NCBI GenBank assembly: GCA_965279325.1
Contig: OZ257154.1
Location: 5,030,510 to 5,094,509, forward strand
Reading direction: 5' to 3'
DNA length: 64,000 nt
Source of the DNA: Burkholderiales bacterium
GTDB taxonomy: Bacteria > Pseudomonadota > Gammaproteobacteria > Burkholderiales > Ga0077523
The translations under genes and the position numbers were made by a program. This document shows positions 46,069 to 64,000 of the stretch, in pieces. The notes beneath the pieces are model-generated. The model was given only the letters and a program-made list of their open reading frames with translations. It ran no database searches and was not told the DNA's origin. Within the stretch, counting starts at the first letter, position 1, and each line of letters starts with the position of its first letter.

Positions 46069-46579
46069 CGCCAGCGAGCAGGACGATGCCGGCGGCGAGC
46101 AGCGCCCACGTGCCGGGTTCGGGAATCGCAAGCACCTCGAAGCCGGCACCGGCCGGGATGGGCAGCACGTTCTGGCCCACCACCACCCCGGGATTGAAGG
46201 CGACCAGCCCCACCGGTGCGCCTGGCGCGATGGTGAAGCGCAGCGTCGCCAGCACGGCATCGGCTGCAAACGATTTTTCCGGCAGATAGAAGACGGCACA
46301 ACCGTCGGAGATGCACGAACCGAAACCGCCGTCCGTCAAAGCGGGAGTGCCGGTCAGGGAGACGAAGCTGAGCACCCCCGCCACGCCGTCGATGTCGGGC
46401 ACGATGTCCAGCGCCTCCAGGATGGTTCCGGCCCGCGCATTGACCGTCAGTTCGACGTTCTCGCCCGGCAGGCCCTTGGTCTGCCCCGCATAGAAGATCT
46501 CGGCAGTGGCGGAACCCGCCCACGCGAGGGTCGAAAGCGCGGACAAAAGATACAGCGTGATCCTGGTTACGGTGTGCAT
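46037..46579 (-). CDS. PEP-CTERM sorting-domain protein with cohesin-like beta-sandwich body
   Basis: ATG at 46579 is 1 nt after the giant gene's TGA (46581-46583). Signal MHTVTRITLYLLSALSTLAWAGSATA. Body has GLPGENVELTVNA....LEALD and ATLRFTIAPGAPVG patterns. C-terminus IPEPGTWALLAAGIVLLAGATKRS. Confidence 0.75.
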   Translation of the reverse strand: MHTVTRITLYLLSALSTLAWAGSATAEIFYAGQTKGLPGENVELTVNARAGTILEALDIVPDIDGVAGVLSFVSLTGTPALTDGGFGSCISDGCAVFYLPEKSFAADAVLATLRFTIAPGAPVGLVAFNPGVVVGQNVLPIPAGAGFEVLAIPEPGTWALLAAGIVLLAGATKRSQARYR

Positions 46580-46580: not shown

Positions 46581-49500
46581 TCAGTGCCTCCGATTGGCGA
46601 TCCATCCGGTTTCCGCATCCGCTGGTCGGGTCAGCAGCCGAGGTTGTAGATTACCTGCAATTCCCGGGCTTGTGCCAGGCTGCGATGTCCCCTGACTGGC
46701 CTGACCGAGCCACTGTGGCGGCGTGGGCACGCCGGCCCTGGAACTGCCCTTGCGCTCCGCGTCGCCCACCACCGGCGCGTACGGGGAATCCGACCCCCGC
46801 GGGCCGCGGTTCGACGTCTCCGGGCCAACATCGCCAGGAGGTGTCGTGCGGAAACTGGAGGTCCAATCGACGAGCTGCGCCCTGAGTTCCGGCACGGCGC
46901 GCGGCGGGCGGGCGACGAGTAGCGTGGTGTCGGTGGGATCGGCTCCCGTCACCGGTCTCGGATTCAGGGTCAGGCCGTCTTCGTTGAGGCTGGCCCATTG
47001 CAGGTCGATCGCGTAGCGCCCCGAGGCCGCGTGGTCCTGCACGCGGAAGTCGATCTCCAGGACCTTGCCACTGCCGCCCGAGAGCGCCTCCAGGCGGCTC
47101 ATGTCCACCTTGAGGAGGCCCGCTGAATCCGACTTGAGGAACCAGCCGAAGTCGCCCGTGAGGCCGCTGCGGCGCACGTCGAGTATTTCGAGTGCGCTGG
47201 CGTCGTAGCCGATGCGCAGCTGGACCGAATCCAGGCCTGCGGCGGTATCGAGCTGAACCGGGACGGTGACGATCTGCCCGGGGGCGGCGGTGCCCGCGGC
47301 TCCCAGCGTGAGCAAGGGGTCGGGACCACTGCGGAAGACGGCGGGCGGCGAGGCCGGGAGGTCCGGGATCTCCGGCACCGGCAGCGAGAGAATCTTGCGC
47401 TGGACCAGCAGGGCATCGGCGGATTCGAGGCGCCCCGACCCGCCCGTGTCGCCGATGATCAGGGGATCGGCCAGCGGATAGGCGCTGAACCCGGTGTCGA
47501 GCCGCAGCACCACGCGCTGAATGCGTTGGGCATCGAGCGAGGAGTAGGCGGCGTTGCCGGTCGTGTCGCCGATGTAGGCGATGACCTGGATCGCATCGTC
47601 GTCGCGAACCCCCGCCGAGCTGCCGTCGATGGCGACGTTGCGCACGTCGAGTTGCTGCTTCGCGCCATAGGGTGCCGACGTGGGGACGGTCCCGAGCAAC
47701 CGCCCGAGTTCCAGGTTGGCACCACTGACCGGCGTGGCGAAGACGATCTTCACGGCGGCTACGCCCGGCGTGGTGAGGTCGACCGTCGCCGTGCCGCCAG
47801 CAGGGTTCGATATGCCGGACACCTTCAGCAGGGCCGGATCGTAGTGGATCTCCAGTTCTGCCGTTGTGAACGTGCCGGCATTCGCGATCCGGATCGGAAC
47901 ACCCGCCGGGCCCTGGGCCACGCCGATGTCCTGGTCCGGTCCGCGGGCGAAGTCCGCGATGCCGATGCGTGGACCGCTGCTGCCGGTCACGGTAAACGCG
48001 GTCACGTAGTCGTCGCCCGCCACGCCGTCGGCGTTGCCGTCGAGCGCGATGCCGGTCAGGTCGCGCAACGCCGTGGCGCCGCTTTCGATCCGCACCGTGT
48101 AGCTGCCATCCACGAGCGGAATGCCGGTGTTGACGAAGACGAGGCCCTTGCGGTCGGCGTCGAGCGCGATCGAGCCGCGCACCACGCCTGCGGGACCCGT
48201 CACGACGACGTCGGGTAGGCCGAACCCGCCGCCGGCACCGTCGTAAAGATTCAAGCCCGCAGTGTCGTAGGCACGATTGAACTGCACATCGAAGCCCGAG
48301 GCGGTCGGCGTGAAGCCGGTGACCACGAGCGGCGCGTGCAGGATGCTGAACGCGACATCCGACCGGTCTCCGATCGCCGGATTGGCCGATTGCGTGATGC
48401 GCACGAAGTAGTTGGTCCCGGCGGGGAACAGCGTCTCGTCGACCGTCCACTGGTAGAGGTCGTCGTTCGCTTCGTTGGCCGCGATGGTCGTGAACGGTCC
48501 GCCGCTGCCGGAAGCCGAAACCGCGATGTCCACCGGACCGGCGAAGCCGTCGTGCCGCCAGCGGATGTCGAACGTGCTCAGCTGGGGGATCGCCTCGCCG
48601 CCGTTCGGCGCCATGACGAGCACGTACTGCACGGGGCTCAGCGAGGCCTGGAACGTGTTGCCGTACGCGCCGACGTTGATGTAGCCGCCGTTGGGGGGCG
48701 GTTCGTTGGCGAACGGATCGCCGGCGTCGCCGCGGTCGATGGCCGGGGACTGCTGCGCGTCCGCGATGACGATCGGAATCGGCAGTTCGGCACGTCCGGG
48801 GATACCGAAGAACGACGGCCCTTCCACCGGAGCGAGGGACCCGCCGTGGTAGCTGCCGTTCAGGCTGCGCTCATGGAAATCGTCGTCGCGGCCGTCGCTC
48901 ACGCCGGCCGAATAGCCGAGCACGCCGTCGGCGCCGTCCGGATCGACGAACAGGGGGTTGGCGAAGATGCTGTCGGTATCGGTGCCGGTCGCCGTGCGCC
49001 AGGCAGCGAAGGAGCCGCGCGCCGCATTGCCGAAGAAGCCCACGCTGCCGGTCCCCAGGAGCCCGCGGAAGAAGACGTTCGTGTCCGACGTGAAGCCCGT
49101 CGGCGAATCAGGGGCGACGCGCACGCCGAACCCGTTTTCCGCCCAGAGGATGTTGTTCCGGATGCCGACACCGGTGGAAGCGCCACCGATCTGCAGCGCG
49201 TCGCCCGCGAGCGCGAACAGCGTGTTGTTCACGATCTCGGCGCCCGGCGCGCCGGTCAGGACGAGTGCGGCGACGTCGGTGTCATAGACGAGGTTGTTGC
49301 GGGCCAGCACGCCGCTACCGCCCAGCTGCATGCCGATCGGGCTGGAGTACACGACGTTCTCGAGCGCGTCGCTCGAGCTCGCCCGGATGCCCACGGTGGT
49401 GTTGCCGTACACGCGATTGCCCTGCACCGTGGCGCTGTCGGCATCGATGCCGATCGCGTTGGCGTAGATCACGTTGGACAGTCCGACCGCACCGCGTCCG

Positions 49501-52500
49501 AGCCGGAGTCCGATGGATCCGGCGCCGGTCTGGCGCGTCACCGTGTTGCCGGCGAAGACGACGTTGCCGTAGGCCTCGGCGCCGAGACTGAGGTTCTCCC
49601 AGATCAGGTTGCCGGTGCCGGGCGCGAGGTCCTTCGAACCCACGAGAGCGGAGCCGCCGACGGTGTTGTCCACCAGCATGCCGCGTGAGTTGCGCAGACT
49701 GAAGTTGCCCTGGATGAGTGCTTCGCCCGGATCGCGGATCTCGAAGCCGTAACCGGTGTTGTCGTCGGCCACGTTGCGCAGCACTTCATCCACCGGTCCG
49801 CGCAGGGCGAACCCGCCGCCACGGTTCTGGGAAGCCGAGGAGTCGGTGAGCGTGCCGATCGCGCCCGAAATGAAGATGCCGTAGCCGCCGTTTTCATGTG
49901 CGGAGAGGGCGTAGAAGTCGTTTCCGGCCGAGTTCGTTTCGAGACGGATGCCGTCCAGCGCGTGCCCGAACACATCGAGATCGTGCACCGAGAGATCGTC
50001 GGCGCCGTTGTGTGCGTAGAGACCGCGTTGGGCGTCGCGCAGGGTGAGGTGCGCCACCTCGACCCCATCGGCGTCGTTCAGCTCGATGAGCGGCCGCGAG
50101 CGGTCACCCGGGATCGCCGGGAGGAGCGCAGCGATGCGGGCGGCATTGGTCGGCCCGGTCAGCAGGAATCCCCGGTCGAGACCGAGTCCGAGGTTGACGC
50201 TGCCCGAGACGGCGACCGGGTCGATCATCGAATAGACACCGGTGTCCACGAAGATGCGCGAGCCCGGCGTGACGTCGTAGACCCGCAGCAGGTTGGTCGC
50301 GAAGGGCTTCGGCGCGCTGGCGACCTTGCCGGTGTTGCGGTTGTTGCCCACGGCGGCCGGTGTGTACTCGTCGTTCGTGTTCGAGCCGTCGTCCACGAAA
50401 TAATCGGTACCGGCTTCCGGCACGGTGAACGGTTCCTGGCTGCGGTCGAGCACCAGCGGGTTCGCGACCCACGACACCTGGATGCGCAGGCCCTTCGTGC
50501 CGAAGGCGATGCCGCTCGTGGCCGGCGTCCAGAGGAATTCGCCGTCGTCTGGCGTCGCGGCCGCAATCGTGGCGAGGAAGGCCGGACCGTCGGGCGTATC
50601 CCGGTACAGATCGATCCTGACGGCCGAACCGCCGGTGTTGCTGAAGCTCTCCCAGCGGATCGCGAGCGGTCTGTCGCGGACCGCATCCACGTAGAGATCG
50701 GGCGTGCGCAGCGCGATGTGCGCCACGCCCGGCTGCGGCAGCGTGCCCGGCGAGGTGAAGCGCTGCGTGCCGAACATCGGGAAGAACGCATAGTCGTCGC
50801 CGTGCCGGTCGACGAAACGCGGGCGCGCCCATTCCGGATTGACGACGGTGGCGCCCACCGAATGCAGATCGAAGCGCGCGATGTCGGCCTGCCAGTCGAG
50901 CACGTCGACGAAGTCGCGCGTCCAGAAGCCGACCTTGCCCTTGCCCGTGGCGTACAGGTTGTTCCAGTCGCTGAAGAAGCCCGTCTGGGAATCGTTGGCG
51001 ATGAACAGGTCGTAGCCGTCCTCGGTCCACAGCGTGTTGCGTTCCACGCGGATGTCGCTCGAACCGCCGGTGACCTGCACCAGATTGCCCAGCGGGGTGT
51101 ACATCGTGTTGCGTTCGATGGCGACGCCCGAGACCCCGTCCGCGAGCACCGCGATCTTGTTGCGATAGAGCTGGTTGTCCTCGATGCGGCTGTCGGTGGC
51201 GGCGACGATGCCGTTACCGTTCGAGCCGATGCGGTTGAAACGGATGGTGCCGTCCAGCCGGTCGATGCCGATGTCGTTGCCTTCGATCACGTTGGCCGAC
51301 GCGAGATCGATGCCGCCCACCGTGCCGCTGCCGGCGATGCCGCGCTTGTTGCCGGAAACGTGCTGGTTCTGGATCTGCGCGTCGACGAGTTGCACGCCCA
51401 ACGTGTTGCCCGTGATCTCGTTCGGCCTGGAACCCGTCGCAAATCCGAGTGCGCCGGCGGGGCCCGCGACGGTCGAGCGCACGCCGACGTCGTTGCCGCG
51501 GATGCGGTTCCCGTTGAGCGGCGCGGAGGCGTCGTACCGCACGCCGACGGCCGCGTTGCGGAAGTCGTTGTCGCGGATGTCACCGGCGAATTCGGCCTGG
51601 ATCGACAATCCCGTGCCGGACGCGAACACGTCGTTGTGCGCGATGAGGCCCTTGGCCGCTCCGGCTATCGTGATGCCCGTGGTGCCGCTGAACCGGTTGT
51701 GCAGGACCTGCAGGCCGCCGCTGCCGGCGATGGTCACGCCGTTGCCGCCGATCAGGTTGTCAACCAGCGCGAGGTCGTCCGCCGTCGTCGTGATGGTGAT
51801 GCCGGCCGCCAGGGTGAGCCGCTGGATCACGCCGCCCGCCTGCGCATTCACCGCACCGGTCACGATCGAACCGCCGCCCTGGGCACCGAGGATCGTGACC
51901 CCCGCATCGTTGGCACCCAGCGTGAAGCCCGAGTAAGCCCCGGGCGCGAGGACGATGACGTCGCCGGCGCCGAGGTCGTTCGCGTTCAGAATCGATTGCA
52001 CGCTCACCAGGGCACTGGCGAAGAACACGTTGCCCGGCAGTTCCGTCACTGTGCGCAGATAGGCCTGCGGCAGTCCCGAGGCGTCGTCGGTCCAGCCCAC
52101 GGTGGGCAGCCCGTTCGTGCCGACCGCCAGGTCGAGCGCGGAGAGCTTGCCGCCGGTAGCGCTGATGCCGCCGCCGCTCGCGTCGCCGGGCAGCGTTTCG
52201 ACGAAGCGCGTGCCGTTCCAGCGCTTGACGTAGATGCGCGCGTCCGGGTCCGCGTAGTCGGCGTTGTGGTGATCGACCCAGGCGAGGAACAGTTCGCCGC
52301 CGCCCGATTCCAGCTTGGGGTCGAGCGACCGGCGCGACGTATCGCTCACGCCCGTCTTGACCGCGCCGTCCGGCCCCGCGCTGATCCACGTCCCGCCGAC
52401 GAAGGTCTTGACGTAGATCTGTTCGAAGTCGTTGATGCGTTCGCGGTAGGCGACGAACAGCTGGTTGCCGAGCCACGCCACGTCCGGCTCGCGGCTCTCG

Positions 52501-55500: not shown

Positions 55501-58500
55501 TCCATGAAGTTGCGGCCGCCGGCGTCGGACGTGCGATAGCGGTCCGCGGCGGCGGTCGGGCCGTCGTTGCTCTCCACGATCTCCAGCCGTAGCCGCTGTG
55601 CGTCGGTGAGGCCGACGCTGCCGAGCACCGCTTCGATGCGGAAGCTGTCGGTGCGGATGAGGCCGCTCGGCGTCGGGAACTCGCCGCCACCGGGCAGGCT
55701 GGACAGGATGTCCCCGCTCGCGTTGAACACGTTGGTCATGCCGATCGGGTTGTTCACCACGCCGAAGAACGTGATGTCCGGCCGCAGGTTCGGGTTGCCG
55801 GGGTGGGTCGCCTGGATGGTGATGAGCGTGGGCTTGAAGTCGTGGTTCACGTCGAACTCGAAGCCGTTCACCAGATCGACCTCGATGATCACCTCGCGTT
55901 CCGGCGTGGTGAGGAACGTGTTGACCACCTCGATGGCGTTGATCCCCATGTCGAGGATCGACTGGTTCAGGATGTCGACCTTGGCGTAGGTCTCGCGGAA
56001 AGTGAACAGCGGGCCGTTGGGCAGCGCGGTCACGATATTGGAGTCGCCGGTGTTGTCCGACCGGAACAGCGCCTGCCCGCGGTCGTTGTCGTTGATGATG
56101 TCGTCGACGAAGAAGCGGCCGTCGCCGTCGGGATCCACGAAGGTGCCGATCGCGCTGCCCACGCCGGTCACGCTGACGTTGATCGCCTTGACGATGCGTC
56201 CATCGGGCCCGACCACCAGGTTCGGATTCGGTCCGGGCAGCAGGATGACGTTGGAGTCCCAGTCGATGTCGCGGGGCGCGGTGTCGGAGTCGATCTCCAC
56301 GTAGAGCGCCAGGCGATCGAAGCCCGCCGGCTGCTCGAGCGGCGTGACGTCGCCCGAGGGCACGCCGACGCCCGGCAGGATCCGTGGCCCTGCGGTGATC
56401 ACCGCGCCGGGATCGGCGTCGATGAGGGTCGTGGCCTCGAAGTTCGCGTTGTCGTTGCTGTCGCCGGGACCGATGCCGATGAAACTGCCGTTGACGTCGC
56501 TCTGGTTGATGCCGGTGTCGTGGTGCAGGGCGCGGACGTCGACGCCTTCCCATCCCGTCACCTGCGCGCCGCCGCGGATGGCAGTCAGCGCGTTCGCGCG
56601 GACCGTGCCCGACGAGGTCGCGCTGGCGCTACCGAACAAGCCACCTGCCGAGGCGTCGGCGTTGTAGTCCACCAGCATGTGCGACCACTCCGACAGCAGC
56701 TCGACGCTGCGCGCCGTGACGCGGGCGTTGGAGCCGACGACGGCCTGGGTGGCGTCGTTGACGTTGCCGGGCGAGTCGGCATCCACCGACGCGACGAAAC
56801 CGCCGCCATCGGCGTTGGAAGTGATGCTCGCGTCGAGCGTGGACGCGGTCGAGACGCTGAGGTGTCCTCCGGCCTCGACGTTCACGCCGTTCGCGACGAT
56901 GTTGCCGGCGCCGTCGTCGGTGCCGATGTAGGCGCGATTCGAATGGTTGATGGTCGTGCGCGAATCCGCATTGCCGACCGCGACGAAGCCGCCGCCGGCG
57001 TTGCTGCCGTAGGAGGATGTGTTGCCCGTGGACACCGACCGCACGTCGACGTTGCCGCCGGCCTGGAGCAGGGCGGGCGCGACGTAGGCCTGGACGTTCT
57101 GGGTGAGCCGCAACGTGCCGTCCGGATCGCCCGAGGCGACGAAGCCGCCGCCGCCGCCGACCGCGGAAGCCGAGCTCTGGCCGTCGCCGGCGGGCGGCGA
57201 CAGCGTGCGCAGCGAGACGCCGTCGTCACCCAGCAGCAGGTGATTGCCGGCCGGTGCCGTCGTGAGATCGATGCGCAGGGAATGCGTGCCCGACTGGGCG
57301 GTCAGGTCGAAGCCCGCGCGCGCGAATGCGTGGACGCCAACCCGGTTGGTGCCGTCGAGGGATGTGATCGGCGCGCCGCCCGGCGAAGTCGCGAGCTGGA
57401 AGGTGTTCGCGGTGACGTTCCGCGCGTAGTACGTGACGCCATCGGAGAGGCCGCCGATGGCCTCGCGGACCAGGAAGTGGCGATCGAGATCGTTGGGCGA
57501 AGTCTTGTTGGGGGAGAGTGCGATCGGCGTGACCGGCACGTCGTCGTCGGCGTCGTCGGGATCGGCGCCATCGCGGGTGGCCGCAAGCTGGATGTGGTTC
57601 GCGTCGACGACGATCACGAAGTAGGCCGTGCCGTCGGTCAGCCCACCGATCGGTGCGCCGCCCGGTTCGACGCGGTAGATCAGGCGATTGCCGGTGCCGT
57701 AGCCATGGCCTTCGATGAAGATGCGATCGTTGTCGATGGCGGTGGCGGTGTCGCCGGCCACCGTGACGTCGACCCCGGTGCTGCGGAACTCGCGGGCCGG
57801 GGCGACGCGATAGGCGAGTGCCTGGTTCTCGGCGAAGCCATGGCCGGCGATGGTGACGATGTCGGTGGTGGCGTCGACCGCGCCCGACACGAAATTGCGG
57901 TCGGCGAACCCACCGGCGCCGAGCGCCTCGTTGAGGGTCGCGTAGAGCTTCACGGTGAAATCGTCGAGCCTGCGCACGAAGAACGTGCCGGTCTCGTTGA
58001 GGCTCGTGCTGATCAGGGTGCCGTTGGCGTCGTACTTCACCGCATCGCCATTCACGAAGCCGTGCTGCGTGCTGAACCGGATCCGGTCGCGGGCAGCGTC
58101 GACGCCGGCCTGGGGCGCGAACAGGTCGCCGGTATTCGCGCCCGAGGCGTCGAACACCGCTCCGAGCTGCAGCGTGTCCTCGCCCGTGGCGATGGCCCGG
58201 TACTCGCGCCCGGCGACGAGCGGCCCGTTGGCCGTGCCGATCGCCGTATTGCCGTTCGCGTTGTACGTCACGATGTCGCCGGTCGCGACGCCATGCTGGA
58301 CGAACGTGATGGTGTCGTCGTTGATCGTCGCCGCGTTGGTCGTGAACGTGTCGCCGAGGGCTTCCAGGGGTTGCGCACGCGCCAGTGCTTCGACTCTCAC
58401 GGATCCGGCGACGTCGAGGGTCGCGCCGGTGTCGATGAAGGCGTTGATCGTCGGCGTGACGGTGGTGTCGGCGTTCGACGCACCGATGTCCACCAGGCCG

Positions 58501-61500
58501 CCGCCGTAGCTGCGCGCGGTGGAATCGCCCTCCGCCCGCACGGAATCCGCGCGCACCGTCACGCTGCCGCCGATGTTCTGCATCGACACGTCGTTGTCGA
58601 TCACCGCCTCGATGAACGGGGTCAGGTTGGTGGTCGCCTGTGCACCGCGCGCACTCACCACGCCGCCGGTGGCCGTGAGCGTGTCCGACTTGGCGGTGTT
58701 CACCGCCGTGGCCTGCACCTCGAAGTTGCCGGCCTGCAGCACCTGCGCGCCTGCGTTCACGTAGGCGGTGGTGGCGCCCGTGAGCGTGGCGGTCGAGTCG
58801 AGGATACCGGCGCCGACGATGCCGCCGGCACCGCCGCTCGTCTTCGCATTCGCACGGTTGTTCGCCACGGCGTTGGCGGCCACGTTGCCACTCGCCGTGA
58901 GGCGCGACCCGGAGCCGAAATACACCTGCGTATTGCCCGTGGTGTTGCCGGTCGATTCTGCATCCGCGACCCCGACCAGGCCGAGGTTGACGAGGTTGGT
59001 GTTCGCATCGCCGACCCGCACCGCATTGGCAGTGAGCTCCAGGTTGCGGCTCGTGACGATGCCGTCGATGAACGACCGGGTCAGGTCGTTGGCATTGGCG
59101 GTCGGATTCACCGAGCCGACCGACACGAGGCCGATCCCGGCGGTGTCGACGTCCGCGTCCGCGGTCGACCCGAGCACGCTCGACAGCTCGATGTCGCGCG
59201 CGTTCACGTTCGCGCCGCCGGCGATGAACGCCTCGGCCGTATGCGTGGTGTTGGCGGTGGGATCGAGGAAGACGGCGTTCACCAGGCTCACCCCGACCGA
59301 CGACAGCGCCGCGTCCGCCCTGTTGCCGATGGATCGCGCCGTCAGCGACAGATCGTTCGCGGTGAGCGAGGCGTTGGCCCCGACGAAGGCGCGCGTCGCA
59401 CCCTCGACCGTCGCGGTCGAGTCCACGTCCTCGACGCCGACGGCGCCGATGCTCACACTGAAACTCTCGGAGTCCGCGTGGCTGGTCGATTCGGCCAGGA
59501 ACGCGAGCGGCCCGCCGGTGACGGTGATGGCGGCGGCGTCCGCTACGTACGACGCGGTCTCGTGGGCGACGCGGACCGCGGAAGTGCCACCGCCGACGTT
59601 GACCGCACCCACGTCGAGCGAGAAGACGTTGGTCGAGGCCGTGTTGTCCGGCGCGCTGGCGGTCACGTTGATCGCGCCCGCGTCGAGGGCGAACGTGCCG
59701 CCGAGGTGAGCGAGCGTCTGGCCGCCCACGATCACGTCGGGCCGCACCGAGTCGAAGGTGACGAGGCCGATGGAGATCGAGAGCGCGTCGAGGCTTGCGG
59801 TGTTGCCCGAACCCACTTGGCCGGCGTGCAACGACAGGGCGCCCCCGACGTCGATGATGCCCGCTGCGCCGGTCGCAGGCGCGCCAGCGCGTGGGCCGAC
59901 GTAGGACTCGACGACGTGCGAAGTCTGCACCGTGGGACGGATGACGCTGATGTCCACGATGCTCGTGGCGACGATCGCGGAATCCACCGTCGCGGTGTTC
60001 TCCGCGTCCGCAGCGAGGCTCAGGCTGCCGGCGCGGACTTCCGCGCCCTCTTCGACGAAGGCGCGGGTCGAGCCACCGGTGTTGACCGACGGCTTGAACG
60101 TGCCGACGCTCACCAGCGACGCGCCCAGTTCGAACCGGTTCAGGTCTGCTTCGTTGCGCGACTCGGCGCCGAGCGAGATGCCGCCGCCGTTCAGCACGAA
60201 GTCCGCGTTGCGGCCGACGAAGGCCTCGGTCGCGTGATTCGTGAGCACCGCGGCCGTCACCTCGGTCACGTCCACGAGGCCGAGCTTGATCGGGACGGTG
60301 TCGGAGCCGGCGGTGTTGGTGGCGGTCGCCTGTCCGGTGATGCCGGTGGCGTTGACGGTGTAGTCGCCGCCGACGTGCACGCGCGTCGTACCGAGCGTGC
60401 TGATATCGGGCTCCACGAGATCGACGGCAACCAGGCTGAGCGAGATGTTCACTTCACCGACGTTCGCCTCGTTGGTGGAGTCGGCGTTGAGCGCGAGGTT
60501 GCCGCCCAGGGTCAGCGTGCCAGCCGGCCCGGACGGATCGACGCCGGCGGCCGGGCCGACGTAAGCGTCGACCACGTGCGTGGTGCGCGCGACCGGTGTC
60601 GCCTTCTGCAGCGTGAACAGCGACGCGCCCATCTGGAAGCGGGCGACGTCGGCATTGTTGTCGGCCGTGGCGTTGGCGGTGAGGCCCGCTGCGCTGATGG
60701 TGGAACCCTGGTCGACGTAAGCGAGGGTCGAGCCGCCGGCGTCGGCGGTGCTCTTCACGAAATTCAGCTCCACCGCGCCCAGGTCGATCGGCGTGATCTG
60801 ATCCACCGTCGCGTCGTTGGTGGAGGTCGCGTCGAGCGTGAGCGCACCGCCGCTAATGGCCAGGTCGGCCCGCGGGCCGGTGAACGCCTCGGTGACGTGC
60901 GTCGTGCGCGCGGAGCGCTCGTTCAGGTCCACGTCGACCAGCCCGATCTCGAAGGCGACTGCCGCGGAACTGGCATCGTTGAGCGAAACCGCTTCCACGG
61001 CAACGCTGTCGGCGAAGATGTCGAAGTTGCCGCCGGCGTAGGCGCGCGTGGCACCGCCCGCGTTGGCCTCGGGCTTGACCTTCTCCACCGTGACGAGGCT
61101 CGCGTCGATCGTCACTTGCGCGACGGTGGCATCGTTGTCCGACGAGGCGCGCAGGTTCAGGCCGCCGTTGTCGACGCGCAGCGTGCCGCTCAGGCTGGTG
61201 TCTGGGAGGTTGCCCTTCGCGGGTCCGAGGTAGGCCGAAGTGACGTGTCCGGTCTGGGCGACCACGTCGGCCAGCTGGACGTTGACGCCGGAGGCGCCGG
61301 CATACTCCGCGGCCGCGACCGCGTTGTTGTCGGAGGTGGCGGTCGTGATCAGCGAACCCACGTCGACGGAAGCTCCCTGGTCGATCTGGACCAGCGTCGT
61401 GCCGTTCACCGTCGCGCTGCTGCCGGTATCGCTCACGTTGACGAACGTCGCGCCCGTCGACAGGTTGTTCGAGGTGGCGGAGTTGCCGGAGTTCGCGGTG

Positions 61501-64000
61501 ACGGTCAGGCCCAGCGTGGTCGCTACGTTAGCCCCGGTGCCGAGCGAGGCGGCGGTCTCGCCGTTGATGATTGCCCTCGCATCGGTGTCGAAGGGCGGCA
61601 GTATCGGGATCGGCAGGTCGGCGGGCAGCTTGTCCGCGATGGCGGAGAGGCCGACGCCGTTCAGGGTGAGGATGTTGACGTTGACGATGCTGGTGGTCGC
61701 GGTCGCGGTCTTGTCCGATTCCGCCGTGACCGTAGCGCTGCGCGCCCGCACCCGACCCGAAACGTGGGCACGCGTGTTGGACTGCGCCAGTGCCAGCGTG
61801 GCCTGCGCCCCGATGGTGAAGAGCCCGACGTTGGCGTCGACCAGATTCGGGTTGGCCGTGTCGTTCGAATCGGCGCTCACGTTGACGCTGCCGCCCGAGG
61901 TGATGGTGATGTCGGCGCCCTCGCCGATGAAGGCCTCGGTGTCGCCCGACGTCTGTTCGGCTTCGAAGCCTACTTCGCCCGTGAACACGGCGATGCCCAC
62001 GAAGCTCACGTTCGCGTTGCCGTTGCGGATGGCGTCGGCGGTGACATCGAGCTGGGTCGCGGTGATCACACCGGTCGCCTCGGCACGGGCGCTCTGGCCG
62101 GCCAGCGTCTCGGCGATCATGATGCCCGCCGCCGCGAACCCCGAACCGGCGAACCCGCCGGCACCGGCATCCGGCGCGGCGTCCGCAGTCGCGTGGATCA
62201 GTATCGCGCCGGCGTTGACGATGGATCCGCCGGCGATGGCGGCCCGGGCCTGCCCGCCGGTTTCGGCGATGGCGACACCGCCGCTCGCGGCGGCGAGCGC
62301 GCCGGCGCTGAAGCCGACCGAGCTCGCGCTGACCTGGGGCGTGTAAGTGGCGAGGATGCTCAGTGCGTCTGCCGCGACGACGCGGGTCGCCGGGCCGTCG
62401 GCCGGGTCCGGACTGTCGATCACCGCCTGCACGTCGTCGGCCACCTTGCTCGACGCGAACGAGAGCCCGGCACCCACGAGACCACCCGCCGCGGCACCGC
62501 CGGCATCGGCATCGACGTCGGTGTCGTCGAGCGCGATGACGAGCACGTCGGCGGCCGATCCGACGTCGGCGCTGCCGTCGATGAACGCACGGATCGAGCT
62601 GGCGAAGTCGTTGATGGCGATGGTGCCGACCCCGCTCGCCACACCACCCACGGAGAAGCCGAGGGCATCCGCCGCGGCTTCGAGGCTGGACACTGCGGAG
62701 ATGAAGACATCGCCCGAGGTGGTTTCGACGGCGGCACCGCCGATACCCGCGGTGACTTCGTTGGTCGCCTTGTTCCGCGAGAACGAGGCCCCCACGCCCG
62801 CGCCGAGGCCGACCGCGAGACCGCCGGCATCTGCGTCGATGGTCGAATCGTCGCGGGCGCGCACGCGCACCTCGCCCGACGAAACCAGGCTCGCAGCGTC
62901 GCGCACCACGGCGCGCGTGGTGTTGGAGAGTTCGTTGACGGTCACCGTACCCACCCCGGCGATCAGGCCGGAGGCGGAAAGGCCGAGCGCGAGCGCGTCG
63001 ACGTCGTAGTCGGTGGTCGCCGCCACGTCGATCCCGCCGTCGCCCGCGTTCACGGTCGCCCCTTCGATGAACGCCTCCACGGTGTTGTCCATCACGTTCA
63101 CGGCGAAGGACGCGCCGGCCGCACCCACGATGCTGACCGATATCGCGCCGGTGTCCGCATCGAGGGTCGAGGTGTCGGTCGCCTGGACGACGACCGTGCC
63201 GGCGTCGATCGTCCCGGTGCCGCCGATGCCCGCGCGTGTGGTGTTGGCAATGATGTTGGCTTCGACCGAGCCCGCGACCGCGACGAGCCCGCCGGCGGCC
63301 AGGCCGAGCGCTTCCGGTGCGTAGGGCACGGCCGTGGTCGCGATGACGTTGAGGGTGCCGTTGCCGACGAAGACGGAACCGTCCACCTCCGCGCGCGCCT
63401 CGCTGTTGGTGTAGTTGAACCCCGCGCCCACCGCGGCGGCGAAGATCGCGCTGATCGACCCGCCCAGCGCGAAGCTGTCGAAGTCGTGATTGGTCTTGGC
63501 GCGCACGTCCACGCCGTCCGTGGCGATGACGATCGCGCCGTCGCCGATGGATGCCTCGACCAGGTCGCCCTCCAGCGTGATGGTGCCGGCGCCGGCGGCC
63601 CCGGCCGCCGCTACGGCCCCGAACGCAGCCTCGCCTGCGAATGCTTCCGCCCGCGCGCGGCCGGCATCCACGACGTTGTCGCCCACGCGTCGCAGGTTCG
63701 CGAGCAGGTCGATGCGGCCCGCGGATTCCACGGTCGCGCCGTCGCCGATGCTCACTTCGGTGTGATTGCGCAGCGCGTTGACGGCGAGCGATCCGGCGAG
63801 GTTGCCGCCGAGGTTGAAGGCAGCGCTCGCGGCGTTCGCGTCGTAGTCGAAGGGCAGGTCGGCTTCGCCCGAGGCGACGAGCGAGATCGAGTTCGCGCTG
63901 ACCGAGGCCCCGTTGCCGATGCGTGCGGAATGTTCGCCTTCGGAGTAGTTGCCCGCCGCTGCCACGCCCACCGCGACCACGCCGCCGATGGCGAGCGCGT
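46581..64000 (-). CDS. Giant multidomain secreted surface protein (5' end outside the window): solenoid-type repeats, internal RTX block, beta-propeller, two parallel beta-helix regions, Ig-like modules and a C-terminal cohesin-dockerin-cohesin-like tail
   Basis: Single stop-free frame from 64000 to the TGA at 46581. The track shows 5,799 aa from an internal GTG, and the frame stays open to the window edge. Domain motifs are listed in the sub-features. Confidence 0.9.
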   Translation of the reverse strand, partial: ALAIGGVVAVGVAAAGNYSEGEHSARIGNGASVSANSISLVASGEADLPFDYDANAASAAFNLGGNLAGSLAVNALRNHTEVSIGDGATVESAGRIDLLANLRRVGDNVVDAGRARAEAFAGEAAFGAVAAAGAAGAGTITLEGDLVEASIGDGAIVIATDGVDVRAKTNHDFDSFALGGSISAIFAAAVGAGFNYTNSEARAEVDGSVFVGNGTLNVIATTAVPYAPEALGLAAGGLVAVAGSVEANIIANTTRAGIGGTGTIDAGTVVVQATDTSTLDADTGAISVSIVGAAGASFAVNVMDNTVEAFIEGATVNAGDGGIDVAATTDYDVDALALGLSASGLIAGVGTVTVNELSNTTRAVVRDAASLVSSGEVRVRARDDSTIDADAGGLAVGLGAGVGASFSRNKATNEVTAGIGGAAVETTSGDVFISAVSSLEAAADALGFSVGGVASGVGTIAINDFASSIRAFIDGSADVGSAADVLVIALDDTDVDADAGGAAAGGLVGAGLSFASSKVADDVQAVIDSPDPADGPATRVVAADALSILATYTPQVSASSVGFSAGALAAASGGVAIAETGGQARAAIAGGSIVNAGAILIHATADAAPDAGAGGFAGSGFAAAGIMIAETLAGQSARAEATGVITATQLDVTADAIRNGNANVSFVGIAVFTGEVGFEAEQTSGDTEAFIGEGADITITSGGSVNVSADSNDTANPNLVDANVGLFTIGAQATLALAQSNTRAHVSGRVRARSATVTAESDKTATATTSIVNVNILTLNGVGLSAIADKLPADLPIPILPPFDTDARAIINGETAASLGTGANVATTLGLTVTANSGNSATSNNLSTGATFVNVSDTGSSATVNGTTLVQIDQGASVDVGSLITTATSDNNAVAAAEYAGASGVNVQLADVVAQTGHVTSAYLGPAKGNLPDTSLSGTLRVDNGGLNLRASSDNDATVAQVTIDASLVTVEKVKPEANAGGATRAYAGGNFDIFADSVAVEAVSLNDASSAAVAFEIGLVDVDLNERSARTTHVTEAFTGPRADLAISGGALTLDATSTNDATVDQITPIDLGAVELNFVKSTADAGGSTLAYVDQGSTISAAGLTANATADNNADVARFQMGASLFTLQKATPVARTTHVVDAYVGPAAGVDPSGPAGTLTLGGNLALNADSTNEANVGEVNISLSLVAVDLVEPDISTLGTTRVHVGGDYTVNATGITGQATATNTAGSDTVPIKLGLVDVTEVTAAVLTNHATEAFVGRNADFVLNGGGISLGAESRNEADLNRFELGASLVSVGTFKPSVNTGGSTRAFVEEGAEVRAGSLSLAADAENTATVDSAIVATSIVDISVIRPTVQTSHVVESYVGPRAGAPATGAAGIIDVGGALSLHAGQVGSGNTASLDALSISIGLVTFDSVRPDVIVGGQTLAHLGGTFALDAGAINVTASAPDNTASTNVFSLDVGAVNVGGGTSAVRVAHETASYVADAAAITVTGGPLAFLAESTSHADSESFSVSIGAVGVEDVDSTATVEGATRAFVGANASLTANDLSLTARSIGNRADAALSSVGVSLVNAVFLDPTANTTHTAEAFIAGGANVNARDIELSSVLGSTADADVDTAGIGLVSVGSVNPTANANDLTRSFIDGIVTSRNLELTANAVRVGDANTNLVNLGLVGVADAESTGNTTGNTQVYFGSGSRLTASGNVAANAVANNRANAKTSGGAGGIVGAGILDSTATLTGATTAYVNAGAQVLQAGNFEVQATAVNTAKSDTLTATGGVVSARGAQATTNLTPFIEAVIDNDVSMQNIGGSVTVRADSVRAEGDSTARSYGGGLVDIGASNADTTVTPTINAFIDTGATLDVAGSVRVEALARAQPLEALGDTFTTNAATINDDTITFVQHGVATGDIVTYNANGNTAIGTANGPLVAGREYRAIATGEDTLQLGAVFDASGANTGDLFAPQAGVDAARDRIRFSTQHGFVNGDAVKYDANGTLISTSLNETGTFFVRRLDDFTVKLYATLNEALGAGGFADRNFVSGAVDATTDIVTIAGHGFAENQALAYRVAPAREFRSTGVDVTVAGDTATAIDNDRIFIEGHGYGTGNRLIYRVEPGGAPIGGLTDGTAYFVIVVDANHIQLAATRDGADPDDADDDVPVTPIALSPNKTSPNDLDRHFLVREAIGGLSDGVTYYARNVTANTFQLATSPGGAPITSLDGTNRVGVHAFARAGFDLTAQSGTHSLRIDLTTAPAGNHLLLGDDGVSLRTLSPPAGDGQSSASAVGGGGGFVASGDPDGTLRLTQNVQAYVAPALLQAGGNVDVRSVSTGNTSSYGSNAGGGFVAVGNADSRTTINHSNRAYIGTDDGAGNIVANGVNVEAGGHLSVSTASTLDASITSNADGGGFVASVDADSPGNVNDATQAVVGSNARVTARSVELLSEWSHMLVDYNADASAGGLFGSASATSSGTVRANALTAIRGGAQVTGWEGVDVRALHHDTGINQSDVNGSFIGIGPGDSNDNANFEATTLIDADPGAVITAGPRILPGVGVPSGDVTPLEQPAGFDRLALYVEIDSDTAPRDIDWDSNVILLPGPNPNLVVGPDGRIVKAINVSVTGVGSAIGTFVDPDGDGRFFVDDIINDNDRGQALFRSDNTGDSNIVTALPNGPLFTFRETYAKVDILNQSILDMGINAIEVVNTFLTTPEREVIIEVDLVNGFEFDVNHDFKPTLITIQATHPGNPNLRPDITFFGVVNNPIGMTNVFNASGDILSSLPGGGEFPTPSGLIRTDSFRIEAVLGSVGLTDAQRLRLEIVESNDGPTAAADRYRTSDAGGRNFMELRGLLRRALVGSEGTTGFNVDVERIRSGSGRSIDVNLELLNGLSQPTVVPGPYRIEVFEPATIVNSFAVPPGLIGGPNRTTTVTDHFTVSPGSVATIFPRGVWGAGFTAVDANYVVGVPFDPDRRIISGSNIDVLGIPGAGDLPFINFVAWTDILGEGNIDTRTNGHITMTEELGDFRVGLIESTRRNVNLTGRLADIIDAPDEEGSGGGTTPDVVGVNLTFNSPQGRVGTFENPLEINSSSFSVGVVKGDALSDIVLVELGTLNVDRIRSELGDVSLLALDGSILDFFDDVAADVIGVNLFLTANGSAIGATANDLDIDSSTVRPGRLAARANNSIFITETDSSLNVQSAIAPGGPVRLTVTDTIATDEDLILMEGGVIFSNETSITLNVGDDIDTRLGSGMFAAQDIFINGDFGDADAGLGSRIVLRGAMIADSTRITTLRDDDEVRIENGILNTFISTSAGDDLIFGSDGGSDDPNISDTIYFGDYIDAGPGNDRIYGLGGADTILAGAGDDYVEGGANGDIIDSGDGDDVVRGGFGGDNIHGGAGVDDIDGGADNDILYGDDGDDQVHAGTGAINIIFGGAGDDVLKGSDEGRDGILGDAGRDYIFGYGGNDLLLGADGDDIVDGGAGDDTIQGGAGRDVLVGGADHDIISGDDATAGDDNAVDYLYGDFGTNLNEPGSGNDQLNGQGGNDVEFGEGGDDSIIDPLGASNLINAGASDDPNLIVVPPATPNPVLAITVDDAFAVNTLPSGPTYSGWWAEIAASATGFGLSGGVGAALDTTVAVDQNGVRYAAWADSRNGNYEIYVARESSSGWEMIGGSADGGGVSGSATDSRRPALLIFNGRATVVWTEVNGNGTDIQGAQYDAGTNSWITLGNSLLPGGISNTARADQAQIVEANGRLVVSWIDTSVLASVYARTFDGVSWVDVTPGSATGLGITQWQPGVAEYDLAAAGNNLAVTWSSGFADDVEVYARVREGATWIGIGGSADPGGLSKSVTESREPDVAWLGNQLFVAYRERINDFEQIYVKTFVGGTWISAGPDGAVKTGVSDTSRRSLDPKLESGGGELFLAWVDHHNADYADPDARIYVKRWNGTRFVETLPGDASGGGISATGGKLSALDLAVGTNGLPTVGWTDDASGLPQAYLRTVTELPGNVFFASALVSVQSILNANDLGAGDVIVLAPGAYSGFTLGANDAGVTILGAQGGGSIVTGAVNAQAGGVIQRLTLAAGITITTTADDLALVDNLIGGNGVTIAGSGGLQVLHNRFSGTTGITIAGAAKGLIAHNDVFASGTGLSIQAEFAGDIRDNDFRNAAVGVRYDASAPLNGNRIRGNDVGVRSTVAGPAGALGFATGSRPNEITGNTLGVQLVDAQIQNQHVSGNKRGIAGSGTVGGIDLASANVIEGNDIGIDRLDGTIRFNRIGSNGNGIVAATDSRIEDNQLYRNKIAVLADGVSGVAIERNTMYTPLGNLVQVTGGSSDIRVERNTLWTEDGYDLFIANDSQTGFFSDWNNLYATGKGKVGFWTRDFVDVLDWQADIARFDLHSVGATVVNPEWARPRFVDRHGDDYAFFPMFGTQRFTSPGTLPQPGVAHIALRTPDLYVDAVRDRPLAIRWESFSNTGGSAVRIDLYRDTPDGPAFLATIAAATPDDGEFLWTPATSGIAFGTKGLRIQVSWVANPLVLDRSQEPFTVPEAGTDYFVDDGSNTNDEYTPAAVGNNRNTGKVASAPKPFATNLLRVYDVTPGSRIFVDTGVYSMIDPVAVSGSVNLGLGLDRGFLLTGPTNAARIAALLPAIPGDRSRPLIELNDADGVEVAHLTLRDAQRGLYAHNGADDLSVHDLDVFGHALDGIRLETNSAGNDFYALSAHENGGYGIFISGAIGTLTDSSASQNRGGGFALRGPVDEVLRNVADDNTGYGFEIRDPGEALIQGNFSLRNSRGMLVDNTVGGSALVGSKDLAPGTGNLIWENLSLGAEAYGNVVFAGNTVTRQTGAGSIGLRLGRGAVGLSNVIYANAIGIDADSATVQGNRVYGNTTVGIRASSSDALENVVYSSPIGMQLGGSGVLARNNLVYDTDVAALVLTGAPGAEIVNNTLFALAGDALQIGGASTGVGIRNNILWAENGFGVRVAPDSPTGFTSDTNVFFRGLLGTGSVGFFGNAARGSFAAWRTATGTDTDSIFANPLFVDPDGADGVLGYSAGVSDGRDDDFHERSLNGSYHGGSLAPVEGPSFFGIPGRAELPIPIVIADAQQSPAIDRGDAGDPFANEPPPNGGYINVGAYGNTFQASLSPVQYVLVMAPNGGEAIPQLSTFDIRWRHDGFAGPVDIAVSASGSGGPFTTIAANEANDDLYQWTVDETLFPAGTNYFVRITQSANPAIGDRSDVAFSILHAPLVVTGFTPTASGFDVQFNRAYDTAGLNLYDGAGGGFGLPDVVVTGPAGVVRGSIALDADRKGLVFVNTGIPLVDGSYTVRIESGATALRDLTGIALDGNADGVAGDDYVTAFTVTGSSGPRIGIADFARGPDQDIGVAQGPAGVPIRIANAGTFTTAELEIHYDPALLKVSGISNPAGGTATVDLTTPGVAAVKIVFATPVSGANLELGRLLGTVPTSAPYGAKQQLDVRNVAIDGSSAGVRDDDAIQVIAYIGDTTGNAAYSSLDAQRIQRVVLRLDTGFSAYPLADPLIIGDTGGSGRLESADALLVQRKILSLPVPEIPDLPASPPAVFRSGPDPLLTLGAAGTAAPGQIVTVPVQLDTAAGLDSVQLRIGYDASALEILDVRRSGLTGDFGWFLKSDSAGLLKVDMSRLEALSGGSGKVLEIDFRVQDHAASGRYAIDLQWASLNEDGLTLNPRPVTGADPTDTTLLVARPPRAVPELRAQLVDWTSSFRTTPPGDVGPETSNRGPRGSDSPYAPVVGDAERKGSSRAGVPTPPQWLGQASQGTSQPGTSPGIAGNLQPRLLTRPADAETGWIANRRH
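46950..47320 (-). other. Cohesin-like module 2 of the giant protein (approximate bounds)
   Basis: GAAGTAAPGQIVTVPVQLDTAAGLDSVQLRIGYDASALEILDV...GKVLEIDFRVQDHAASGRYAIDL. Matches the cohesin pattern (G..V.VPV.L.....I...Q..I.YD...L) by eye. Confidence 0.55.
47385..47585 (-). other. Dockerin-like duplicated F-hand segment of the giant protein (approximate bounds)
   Basis: Two 22-residue segments, GDTTGNAAYSSLDAQRIQRVVL and GDTGGSGRLESADALLVQRKIL, separated by 17 residues. Follows the dockerin pattern GD.N.DG.....D......I/L L, with several Ca-ligand positions substituted. Confidence 0.5.
47612..47970 (-). other. Cohesin-like module 1 of the giant protein (approximate bounds)
   Basis: GPAGVPIRIANAGTFTTAELEIHYDPALLKVSGI...VKIVFATPVSGANLELGRLLGTV. 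Cohesin-like pattern by eye. Confidence 0.5.
48900..50410 (-). other. Parallel beta-helix (PbH1-type) region 2 of the giant protein
   Basis: Serial ~22-residue turns: GIRLETNSAGNDFYALSAHENGGYGIFISG..., NVIYANAIGIDADSATVQGNRVYGNTTVGIRA..., NNILWAENGFGVRV. Ends in FANPLFVDPDGADG. Confidence 0.65.
50950..52000 (-). other. Parallel beta-helix (PbH1-type) region 1 of the giant protein
   Basis: Turns such as HNRFSGTTGITIAG, AHNDVFASGTGLSIQ, IRGNDVGVRS, ITGNTLGVQL, IEGNDIGIDR, IEDNQLYRNKIAVLA, IERNTMY, VERNTLW. Confidence 0.65.
52050..53250 (-). other. Six- or seven-bladed beta-propeller-like region of the giant protein
   Basis: About seven ~55-residue units with the pattern hydrophobic-x-W/Y....(E/Q)IYV/YAR....W......GG(I/L/V)S, e.g. 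RYAAWADSRNGNYEIYVARESSSGWEMIGG and LFVAYRERINDFEQIYVKTFVGGTWIS. Confidence 0.55.
53380..54110 (-). repeat. RTX (haemolysin-type Ca-binding) nonapeptide repeat block, about 20 units, internal to the giant protein
   Basis: GPGNDRIYG LGGADTILA GAGDDYVEG GANGDIIDS GDGDDVVRG ... GAGDDTIQG GAGRDVLVG ... GSGNDQLNG QGGNDVEFG EGGDDSI. Confidence 0.85.
58350..64000 (-). repeat. Array of ~54-residue (~162-nt) degenerate solenoid-type repeats in the giant protein; continues beyond the window
   Basis: Units counted by hand at 53-55 aa, e.g. NTTRAGIGGTGTIDAGTVVVQATDTSTLDADTGAISVSIVGAAGASFAVNVMD. Further in, they alternate between a T.HV.EAFVG type and a GGST.AYV type. Confidence 0.7.

Follow-up and report, generated by a model that had tools for sequence, protein, structure and literature searches.

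A 64,000-nucleotide stretch of a Burkholderiales genome (contig OZ257154.1, forward-strand positions 5,030,510 to 5,094,509; hereafter the window) carries on its minus strand the 3' two-thirds of one intact giant gene, the product of which is assigned by orthology to the LEPR-XLL class of giant proteins. The internal RTX block of this protein reads as a structural Ca2+ module of the class and not as a displaced element of a type I secretion system (T1SS). The protein is likely an extracellular, Ca2+-dependent fibre or scaffold, and on balance we lean slightly toward an overall explanation in which this fibre or scaffold belongs to a matrix and is a candidate for export by a gene cassette acting in trans. 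The giant gene itself is a member of an annotated, uncharacterised family; what is new is a conserved and translationally coupled PEP-CTERM partner gene, together with the cassette found beside relatives.

Genes for giant bacterial proteins of 5,000-40,000 residues occur widely across environmental genomes, and the exit of these proteins from the cell is a standing question. The gene described here shows the internal RTX block as a shared structural module of its class, and its relatives indicate which genes to consider: DUF3467, a SecA-like ATPase, an intramembrane protease that would recognise the leader and a pair of periplasmic adaptors, plus the PEP-CTERM partner. If the explanation is true, these genes would represent a new route of giant-protein export, tied, in Burkholderiales-type bacteria from soils, wetlands and sludge, to exosortase-dependent formation of matrix and flocs; otherwise the giant gene is an ordinary, if spectacular, member of its family.

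The LEPR-XLL class, its internal RTX module and the C-terminal cassette

N-terminal features were read from the ortholog on contig JBBQHP010000003.1 of a Burkholderiales metagenome-assembled genome (L001), the closest genome match to the window. The L001 frame starts 2,791 codons before the match to residue 1 of the window protein (residue 2792 of L001; residue numbers of the giant protein are in-window, with residue 1 at the window edge), from which a full length of ~8,600 amino acids (aa) is estimated. The start reads '...GRGTRMEFDALEPRLLLSADLP...', and the N-terminus MEFDALEPRLLLSADLP scores 21.6 bits with the LEPR-XLL model NF012209, whose cutoff is 17. A preliminary description of the window had named a LEPR-XLL-type signal, a two-partner secretion (TPS) domain and a Sec signal as features to look for at the N-terminus; in the ortholog the first is present, and neither a TPS/Haemagg_act domain (PF05860) nor a signal peptide occurs in the N-terminal 2,791 aa. 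Among 68 homologs of this region, the LEPR-XLL motif lies 30-65 residues in and an Arg/Lys-rich stretch always precedes it. A hydrophobic 12-mer before the motif was found in none of 34 N-termini, the net charge of which ranges from +2 to +11; an N-terminus of this design is neither a Sec nor a Tat signal. The size of the window protein (at least 5,805 aa), its LktA_tand_53 filament repeats and its RTX Ca2+-binding content are those of the class, and the class and architecture assigned here are highly probable. In the literature, LEPR-XLL (also LEPRxLL) is treated as an N-terminal tag of giant proteins, and the LEPRxLL giants Cag_663 and Cag_665 of Chlorobium chlorochromatii are stated to have 'no known transport signal'.

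Two variations were seen among the N-terminal relatives. A subgroup (P0076-P0078, P0080, P0082, P0084, P0088, P0100, P0113) has an extra motif, 'PTL.QIFW..LAN..RR.A.WR', preceding the basic stretch; L003 and L005, two loci in which the SecA-like gene cassette described below lies directly upstream, are in this subgroup and the ortholog L001 is not. The relative in L045, 68% identical to the L001 N-terminal region, is split into several short gene calls and represents either a decayed copy or assembly errors.

In T1SS-exported RTX proteins, the repeats stand directly before a C-terminal signal of ~60 aa, and genes for the ABC transporter, membrane fusion protein (MFP) and, in some systems, outer-membrane factor (OMF) are usually adjacent. 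The window protein is built differently, as the preliminary description had maintained: ~2,255 residues of folded domains follow the RTX block (5805 - 3550 = 2,255, where ~2,270 had been given), and no ABC/MFP/OMF set lies beside the gene. The block matches Pfam HemolysinCabind (PF00353) at E = 8.5e-21, has a 9-aa periodicity by autocorrelation, and is modelled by AlphaFold with a strand exactly every 9 residues (pLDDT about 85-90). Where the preliminary description had placed ~20 nonapeptides at 53380-54110, the model has ~26-28 turns at 53349-54128.

Whether an internal RTX block is unusual depends on the comparison. It is so relative to classical T1SS substrates, as had been claimed, but not within the LEPR-XLL class. 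An exhaustive HMMER search with residues 3290-4440 returned entries of up to 7,996 aa, and the best 150 representatives were examined; a word-indexed protein search gave entries of up to ~1,750 aa, chiefly fragments, and full-length relatives came only from the exhaustive search. The propeller that follows the RTX block has a homolog in 99 of these best 150 representatives, with RTX repeats within 400 residues ahead of it in 77 of 78. Among the representatives of at least 4,000 aa, the RTX-propeller pair is internal (at least 1,000 residues after the propeller) in 49 of 51, the median length of what follows being 3,741 residues; a LEPR-XLL-like motif lies near the start of between 15 (strict pattern) and 26 (loose pattern) of the 41 representatives that start with Met. 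Since the pair is internal in nearly all of the large relatives, the RTX-propeller is a recurrent internal module of LEPR-XLL-type giants and the norm of the class.

The propeller and the beta-helices between the RTX block and the C-terminal cassette resemble folds that bind or process carbohydrates. The modelled propeller has GH145/PL42-type, sialidase and LGI1-EPTP propellers as its Foldseek neighbours (TM-score up to 0.68), and its region has a ~55-aa periodicity. The two beta-helices are paralogous (E = 1e-15), as are the first two Ig-like modules (E = 7e-5); the unit of beta-helix plus Ig is an internal duplication. The AlphaFold model of the RTX-propeller-helix region has a mean pLDDT of 83.

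The C-terminal cassette of Ig-like module, cohesin, dockerin-like segment and cohesin was modelled as one piece (residues 5230-5695, model m7322543dfd5b; pLDDT 88.3, pTM 0.82). The cohesin beta-sandwich fold is found by three means: Pfam Cohesin (PF00963) matches two stretches of the protein, the model contains the fold, and Foldseek aligns the model to single solved cohesins with TM-scores of 0.74-0.79 and to the cohesin dyad 3l8q at E = 8e-11. The two cohesins align to each other by hhalign at E = 7.9e-8. The dockerin-like segment has two units of a D-x-x-x-x-x-x-x-x-x-x-D loop plus helix, with helices at model residues 258-268, 283-286 and 297-307; the dockerin family PF00404 is on record for homologs, weak or faint where its level is stated. 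This cassette is a hallmark of giant genes. It is conserved in 42 homologs, in which the architectures joined to it upstream vary (PKD, cadherin-like, VCBS, tandem-95 and others), and every cassette-bearing open reading frame (ORF) with 10 kb of upstream sequence stays open for at least 3,700 aa.

Downstream of cohesin 2, most relatives have tails of 50-150 aa with the motifs 'PVIDW' and, near the end, 'W..DFV..LG...NPN.K[IL][KR][IV].LP' (P0031-P0052, P0142 residues 5758-5817 and the 3' ends of the giant ORFs in L012 and L015). These tails finish basic and without a transmembrane helix, the terminal motif lying ~15-50 residues from the C-terminus, and such a tail may be a C-terminal signal or a module so far unrecognised. 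Tails are variable among the relatives, and L013 and L014 carry a third variant. A frameshift in the tail of the window protein was considered and rejected, as no alternative frame holds the motif and the DNA cannot be aligned to the L012 tail.

The PEP-CTERM partner and the candidate export cassette

The partner gene begins with an ATG 1 nt past the stop of the giant gene ('CGG AGG CAC TGA g ATG'), and a GGAGG lies 7 nt before this ATG, within the final codons of the giant gene; in this arrangement the two genes are translationally coupled. The partner matches PF07589 at 21.6 bits against a threshold of 20.7 and TIGR02595 at 19.1 against 16. Its N-terminus is signal-like, and its C-terminus, IPEPGTWALLAAGIVLLAGATKRSQARYR, has the PEP motif, transmembrane helix and basic tail of a PEP-CTERM protein. 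Homologs of the partner lie directly downstream of the tail in L010 (E = 4e-8), L012, L013, L014, L015, L019 and L034, and all four of the closest relatives (L012-L015) have one. Functional pairing of the giant protein with the partner is moderately probable.

Family scans covered the 46 called genes of the window (one listing covers 25 of 31 families), and no exosortase family is among those listed for these genes; upstream of the N-terminal relative in L045 are a fragment of the exosortase EpsH and a small PEP-CTERM gene (L045:7077-7807 and 10001-14276). A second PEP-CTERM protein in the window (362 aa, 21447-22535, plus strand) suggests that the organism has an exosortase system.

A recurrent cassette of same-strand genes adjoins giant genes in 13 loci (for example L009:10292-17541). 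The comparison covered 46 related loci; ten loci were read with precomputed Pfam annotation, and 33 metagenomic loci were screened by tblastn. The proteins of the cassette, which span roughly 40-85% identity across the 13 loci, are DUF3467, a GAF-adaptor, an RRE-protease and a SecA-like ATPase, joined in three of the loci by a second adaptor. The RRE-protease is best matched in NCBIfam by the daptide HExxH intramembrane metalloprotease (141 bits). The SecA-like ATPase scores 564 bits across positions 25-491 of the 814 of SecA, and 438-503 bits against SecA2 models. The cohesin tail is immediately followed by the cassette in L009, L010, L011, L012, L021, L022, L026, L030, L032, L041 and L042; two of these are short contigs, and the other nine are among the 21 loci for which 2.8 kb or more of downstream sequence is available. 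In L003 and L005 the cassette stands directly upstream of the LEPR-XLL genes. In the closest relative, L012 (72% identity to the window C-terminus), the order is tail, PEP-CTERM partner (58% identity), DUF3467, GAF-adaptor and contig end. The relatives next in closeness, L013 and L015, have the partner with no cassette within 10 kb, like the window. L013 and L027 are on the same 625-kb contig; several such giants can thus coexist in a genome with no cassette beside them, which fits action in trans. No description of the cassette was found in the literature searched, and it has no dedicated NCBIfam models.

These components suggest how the protein could be exported and used. The most likely export signal is the basic stretch at the N-terminus together with the LEPR-XLL leader. 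The truncated SecA-like ATPase would be the export motor; the PqqD-type domain and HExxH intramembrane protease would recognise and cleave the basic/LEPR-XLL leader (or the C-terminal tail); the GAF-HlyD-type adaptor and the second adaptor would form a periplasmic conduit to an outer-membrane factor; and DUF3467 could be a chaperone-like accessory. The cassette would act in cis at about half of the loci and in trans for the window giant, an in-trans role being drawn from its absence from the window. That the giant is exported by the SecA-like cassette is a tentative proposal to which we give somewhat less than an even chance.

The lack of cysteine, acidic composition, RTX block, carbohydrate-type folds and cohesin/dockerin modules together suggest an extracellular Ca2+-dependent scaffold. 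The protein would leave the cell unfolded and fold outside with Ca2+, and the RTX roll would be an internal structural Ca2+ switch joined to the propeller instead of a secretion ratchet beside a T1SS signal. The resemblance of the propeller and beta-helices to carbohydrate-binding or carbohydrate-processing folds makes it probable that the distal part engages exopolysaccharide, and the cohesin/dockerin cassette would provide self-association or docking. The PEP-CTERM protein, presumably an exosortase substrate, would be a conserved partner at the cell surface or in the matrix, in which case the giant would be a matrix or aggregation scaffold; the giant probably docks to, or cross-links with, this partner in an exosortase-type matrix. 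Extended to the class, the proposal would be that LEPR-XLL giants ending in Ig-cohesin-dockerin-cohesin are substrates of an undescribed Gram-negative apparatus (SecA-like ATPase, RRE-protease, adaptors and DUF3467) and are then tethered to the PEP-CTERM partner in an exosortase/exopolysaccharide matrix; this wider form is speculative and has roughly one chance in three of being right.

Several observations weigh against this explanation. The cassette was found neither in the 64-kb window nor in the 1.6 kb upstream of the L001 giant gene, and about half of the informative relatives are without it within 10 kb; as it is not local, the case for its use by the window giant is one of guilt by association, drawn from other genomes. 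Neither an inner-membrane channel nor an outer-membrane factor was identified for the cassette, which could be a system like those for ribosomally synthesized and post-translationally modified peptides (RiPPs) that merely co-locates with giant genes. Other relatives are flanked by transposases or housekeeping genes, and SapC (PF07277) genes flank LEPR-XLL genes at L004:3537-4286, L004:6048-7526 and L007:6429-7268, which points toward a T1SS link. The SapC flanking matches sapC (Cag_662) beside Cag_663 of Chlorobium chlorochromatii, and an MFP2-like adaptor is also near in L004. On the side of the protein, the window's own N-terminus lies beyond the window edge and the LEPR-XLL assignment is that of L001, and the fold of the 53/54-aa repeats is a prediction from sequence. 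In the window protein the dockerin-like segment does not reach the Pfam threshold, and the PDB dockerin 4uyp_B is reached at just E = 0.22. The partner was tried as a cohesin and is not demonstrably one: BLAST and Pfam are negative, and hhalign to cohesin 2 gives P = 0.011 against 7.9e-8 for the control. The window tail has no counterpart of the tail motif of relatives, and a conserved tail signal was rejected for it because, against a profile built from the tails of homologs, it does not outscore 500 shuffles.

Alternative routes and described systems

The preliminary description regarded the export route as not obvious, and the lack of T1SS or TPS genes nearby and of a Sec signal in the ortholog bears this out: the route is not classical T1SS, two-partner secretion or ordinary Sec. 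Among the alternatives, the one that survives best is that the protein is a conventional, very large T1SS RTX adhesin, leaving the cell C-terminus first through an ABC/MFP/TolC exporter encoded elsewhere, with an atypical signal in the tail. The window protein is like the RTX adhesins and toxins LapA, MpIBP, SiiE, FrhA and HlyA in having an RTX beta-roll, an acidic and Cys-free composition, a very long repetitive extender with ligand-binding domains toward the C-terminal end and, in the ortholog, no Sec signal. T1SS signals have no sequence consensus, and the terminal motif in the tails of relatives is placed where such a signal could be. The adaptors beside relatives are of the HlyD family, and SapC, which is T1SS-associated in sapCDEF of Campylobacter fetus, flanks two relatives and Cag_663. 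The window protein differs in the ~2,255 folded residues after the RTX block (of the 51 large relatives, 49 likewise have the block internally) and in the conserved neighbouring ATPase of relatives, which is SecA-like and not an ABC transporter. None of the ABC exporter (ABC_tran, ABC_membrane), HlyD, C39/CLD, SapC, SecA-like or TpsB families is among those listed for the window genes; a truncated CLD fragment reported 35 kb away was not recovered, no Peptidase_C39 or ABC family being reported for any of the 46 called genes scanned (25 of 31 families listed), so that at most a weak fragment would be there. No T1SS ABC transporter recurs across the 46 related loci, and no recurrent ABC_tran or OEP was present in the gene calls of the ten Pfam-read loci or among 75 further flanking ORFs, in which SapC did not recur either and PEP-CTERM was the sole recurrent family suggestive of an export or surface function. 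With the failure of the window tail to match the tail profile of the family, this makes the T1SS alternative unlikely.

A second alternative retains Sec, ordinary or SecA-assisted, with the basic region and LEPR-XLL as an atypical signal and the cassette as an unrelated RiPP-like peptide exporter. The N-termini do resemble an n-region, with charges of +2 to +11, ahead of a short hydrophobic patch (LLLSA); the closest similarity of the RRE-HExxH protease is to RiPP maturation proteases, DUF3467 could be a small substrate, and about half of the loci lack the cassette. However, no h-region of sufficient length for Sec occurs in any of the 34 N-termini, the cassette contains no RiPP-modifying enzyme, and its position against giant genes in 13 loci, at roughly 40-85% protein identity, is unlikely to be due to chance. 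There is also an independent precedent for SecA-like domains fused to giant proteins: West-Roberts et al. found that most giants of Omnitrophota and some of actinobacteria have fused SecA_DEAD and preprotein-binding domains, without the scaffold and wing, and proposed that these domains export the giant protein (bioRxiv 10.1101/2023.11.21.568195). The Sec alternative is improbable, with perhaps one chance in eight.

The stand-alone cassette encodes the same truncated form of SecA as these fused giants. In both cases a truncated SecA is linked genetically to giant proteins that bear dockerins and are directed at carbohydrates; in the Omnitrophota and actinobacterial giants, however, the SecA-like domains are inside the giant polypeptide, which has many transmembrane helices, whereas in the class described here the SecA-like protein is a separate gene of 556-655 aa, accompanied by an RRE-M50 protease and two MFPs, and is present in relatives only. 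The accessory Sec system (SecA2/SecY2) through which Gram-positive bacteria export serine-rich repeat adhesins is similar in its dedicated SecA paralog, very large adhesins and unusual long N-terminal signals, but the cassette has no SecY2, Asp or glycosyltransferase genes, its SecA-like ATPase is without the C-terminal third, and its setting is Gram-negative, with periplasmic adaptors and an intramembrane metalloprotease.

Two-partner secretion (type Vb) of a TpsA-like filament, comparable to FhaB, HMW1 or Fusobacterium LktA, was a candidate in the preliminary description and would suit the ~53-aa LktA-type repeats (LktA_tand_53 at 88 bits) and fibre-like beta-solenoid architecture, but the ortholog has neither signal peptide nor TPS/Haemagg_act domain, surE and not a TpsB-like gene lies upstream in L001, and no TpsB-like gene was seen in the window or in any sampled neighbourhood, so that this route is effectively excluded.

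The nearest described relatives are the LEPR-XLL giants Cag_663 and Cag_665, which share giant size, beta-helical repeats like those of filamentous hemagglutinin, internal Ca2+-binding/hemolysin-type repeats, the absence of a recognised export signal and the 24-aa LEPRxLL motif after a basic stretch (here in L001); MFP, SapC or TolC-type genes are sometimes near such giants. Cag_663 and Cag_665 differ in having MtxA-like domains at the end and adjacent sapC and tolC, while the window subfamily has the RTX-propeller, two copies of beta-helix plus Ig, the Ig-cohesin-dockerin-cohesin end and the coupled PEP-CTERM partner. Two cohesin folds and a duplicated dockerin-like segment also recall cohesin-dockerin systems, both cellulosomal scaffoldins and non-cellulosomal modules, and the neighbouring giant and partner genes may encode a docking pair of the kind proposed for Cag_2037/Cag_2038. 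The window protein is distinct from these systems in that a single giant, non-cellulolytic proteobacterial protein carries both modules at its end, and in that the candidate anchor bears PEP-CTERM and no SLH or sortase signal.

Intactness of the gene, feature coordinates and neighbouring genes

The minus-strand frame 46584-63998 has 5,805 codons with zero internal stops and runs past the window end, as the preliminary description had noted. In a window of 66.8% GC, the GC content at codon positions 1, 2 and 3 of the giant ORF is 0.66, 0.51 and 0.90 and is even in every 1.5-kb slice, with the third position (GC3) at 0.88-0.93 across 5,700 codons and declining to 0.76-0.78 over the tail. The protein aligns to the L001 ORF in a single 3,725-aa segment at 64% identity (76% over its first 400 residues in the window), and residues 1680-5698 are collinear with representative P0142 at 46-48% identity. 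DNA repeats within the gene are diverged (60-80% identity), and the sole period detected by Tandem Repeats Finder is the 27-nt RTX period (array 53581-54033), which makes repeat collapse unlikely. Its composition in the window is 0 Cys in 5,805 aa, with 669 D+E against 310 K+R. Two long plus-strand ORFs opposite the gene (49689-55589, 1,967 codons; 55593-63998, 2,802 codons) are antisense shadows, as the high GC falls in their codon position 1 (GC1 = 0.91). Such shadows are possible sources of mis-annotation by a naive ORF caller.

An assembly artefact or decaying pseudogene, whether a repeat-driven chimera or a chance open frame in GC-rich DNA, might be suspected from the shadow ORFs, from the lower GC3 and divergence of the final ~100 codons and from the broken L045, but it is close to excluded by the sustained GC3, the collinear single alignments to two independent homologs, the diverged DNA repeats, the high-confidence folds of 1,627 modelled residues and the coupled downstream gene.

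Table 1. Features of the giant gene and its partner in the window, and proteins of the SecA-like cassette of related loci
Feature	Position	Residues or size	Strand	Basis or content
Giant ORF	46581-64000	5,805 codons in window	minus	stop at 46581-46583; 5' end beyond window
53/54-aa tandem LktA-type filament repeats	58359-63998	aa 1-1880	minus	NF012206, autocorrelation
HG-motif modules, four or five	57279-58361	aa 1880-2240	minus	read by eye from sequence
Solenoid-like sequence, then long irregular beta-rich region	54129-57281	aa 2240-3290	minus	collinear with L001, P0142
RTX Ca2+-binding beta-roll	53349-54128	aa 3291-3550	minus	PF00353, Tandem Repeats Finder array, AlphaFold model
Seven-bladed, four-stranded beta-propeller	52017-53162	aa 3613-3994	minus	AlphaFold model, Foldseek
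Right-handed parallel beta-helix 1 (NosD/pectate-lyase-like)	50907-51959	aa 4014-4364	minus	PF05048 NosD E = 3.4e-20, model
Ig-like module 1	50394-50711	aa ~4430-4535	minus	Kre9_KNH-type paralog; 30% identity, E = 7e-5 to aa 5145-5222
Right-handed parallel beta-helix 2	48729-50321	aa ~4560-5090	minus	PF13229 Beta_helix E = 3.7e-29
Ig-like module 2 (Kre9/KNH-like)	48378-48608	aa 5131-5207	minus	PF10342 E = 1.9e-10
Ig-like module 3, first part of conserved C-terminal cassette	47958-48311	aa 5230-5347	minus	model m7322543dfd5b residues 1-118
Cohesin 1	47583-47903	aa 5366-5472	minus	Pfam Cohesin, model, Foldseek
Dockerin-like duplicated segment (IGDTTGNAAYSSLDAQRIQRVVL ... IGDTGGSGRLESADALLVQRKIL)	47382-47564	aa 5479-5539	minus	model helices
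Cohesin 2	46914-47312	aa 5563-5695	minus	PF00963 E = 2.9e-13, model
Low-complexity, probably disordered tail with basic end	46584-46913	aa 5696-5805	minus	GC3, profile test
Partner gene: signal peptide, conserved two-Cys beta domain, PEP-CTERM anchor	46037-46579	180 aa	minus	PF07589, TIGR02595
DUF3467 (SecA-like cassette)		~95 aa		
GAF-adaptor (SecA-like cassette)		~620-635 aa		cytoplasmic GAF, one transmembrane helix, HlyD/RND-type periplasmic adaptor
RRE-protease (SecA-like cassette)		~720 aa		N-terminal PqqD-type peptide-recognition element, ~six transmembrane segments, HEMGH
SecA-like ATPase (SecA-like cassette)		556-655 aa		motor and preprotein-binding domains, without scaffold and wing
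Second adaptor (SecA-like cassette)	only in L009, L021, L041	~250-270 aa		

The order of domains given in the preliminary description is upheld by profile models and two confident AlphaFold models, except that the HG modules and the irregular stalk are matched by neither. NF012206 (LktA_tand_53) matches the giant protein in six stretches, its 88 bits standing against a cutoff of 50, and autocorrelation peaks at 53, 54 and 108 aa through residues 1-1900; these repeats probably form a beta-solenoid fibre, and a PDB sequence search with them found no relative. The HG motif is H-G-x-x-x-G-[DN]-x-[VLA]-x-Y, in small beta modules whose region is conserved in P0142; they have no family match, only sub-threshold Pfam hints such as End_beta_barrel (E = 0.79). 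Pfam and PDB searches with residues 2240-3290 were without match, and no usable match came from PDB sequence searches with DUF3467 or with the HG modules, stalk, propeller and N-terminal repeats of the giant.

The gene upstream of the giant in L001 is surE. Downstream of the partner gene in the window are a glyoxalase, a 364-aa ORF without an assigned family, SRAP, a DsbA-like protein (42232-43140, minus strand) and a GAF-GGDEF diguanylate cyclase (40230-42023, plus strand), the last two 3.5-6.5 kb downstream of the giant gene. Control by cyclic di-GMP is common for large adhesins. The sole outer-membrane factor gene of the window, an OEP (TolC-like) gene at 38090-39712, was considered as a T1SS component and discarded because its neighbours, a multicopper oxidase and DUF2946, make up with it a copper-resistance-like cluster (36715-40179, minus strand). 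Farther away, the region around 10.9-13.2 kb, where the CLD fragment was looked for, contains an amidase (11581-13197, E = 4e-96) and a 185-aa ORF without an assigned family (10898-11455), and an ORF at 9552-10886 on the plus strand has the unusual pairing of Adhesin_E (E = 2e-12) with a eukaryotic-type carbonic anhydrase (E = 1e-38).

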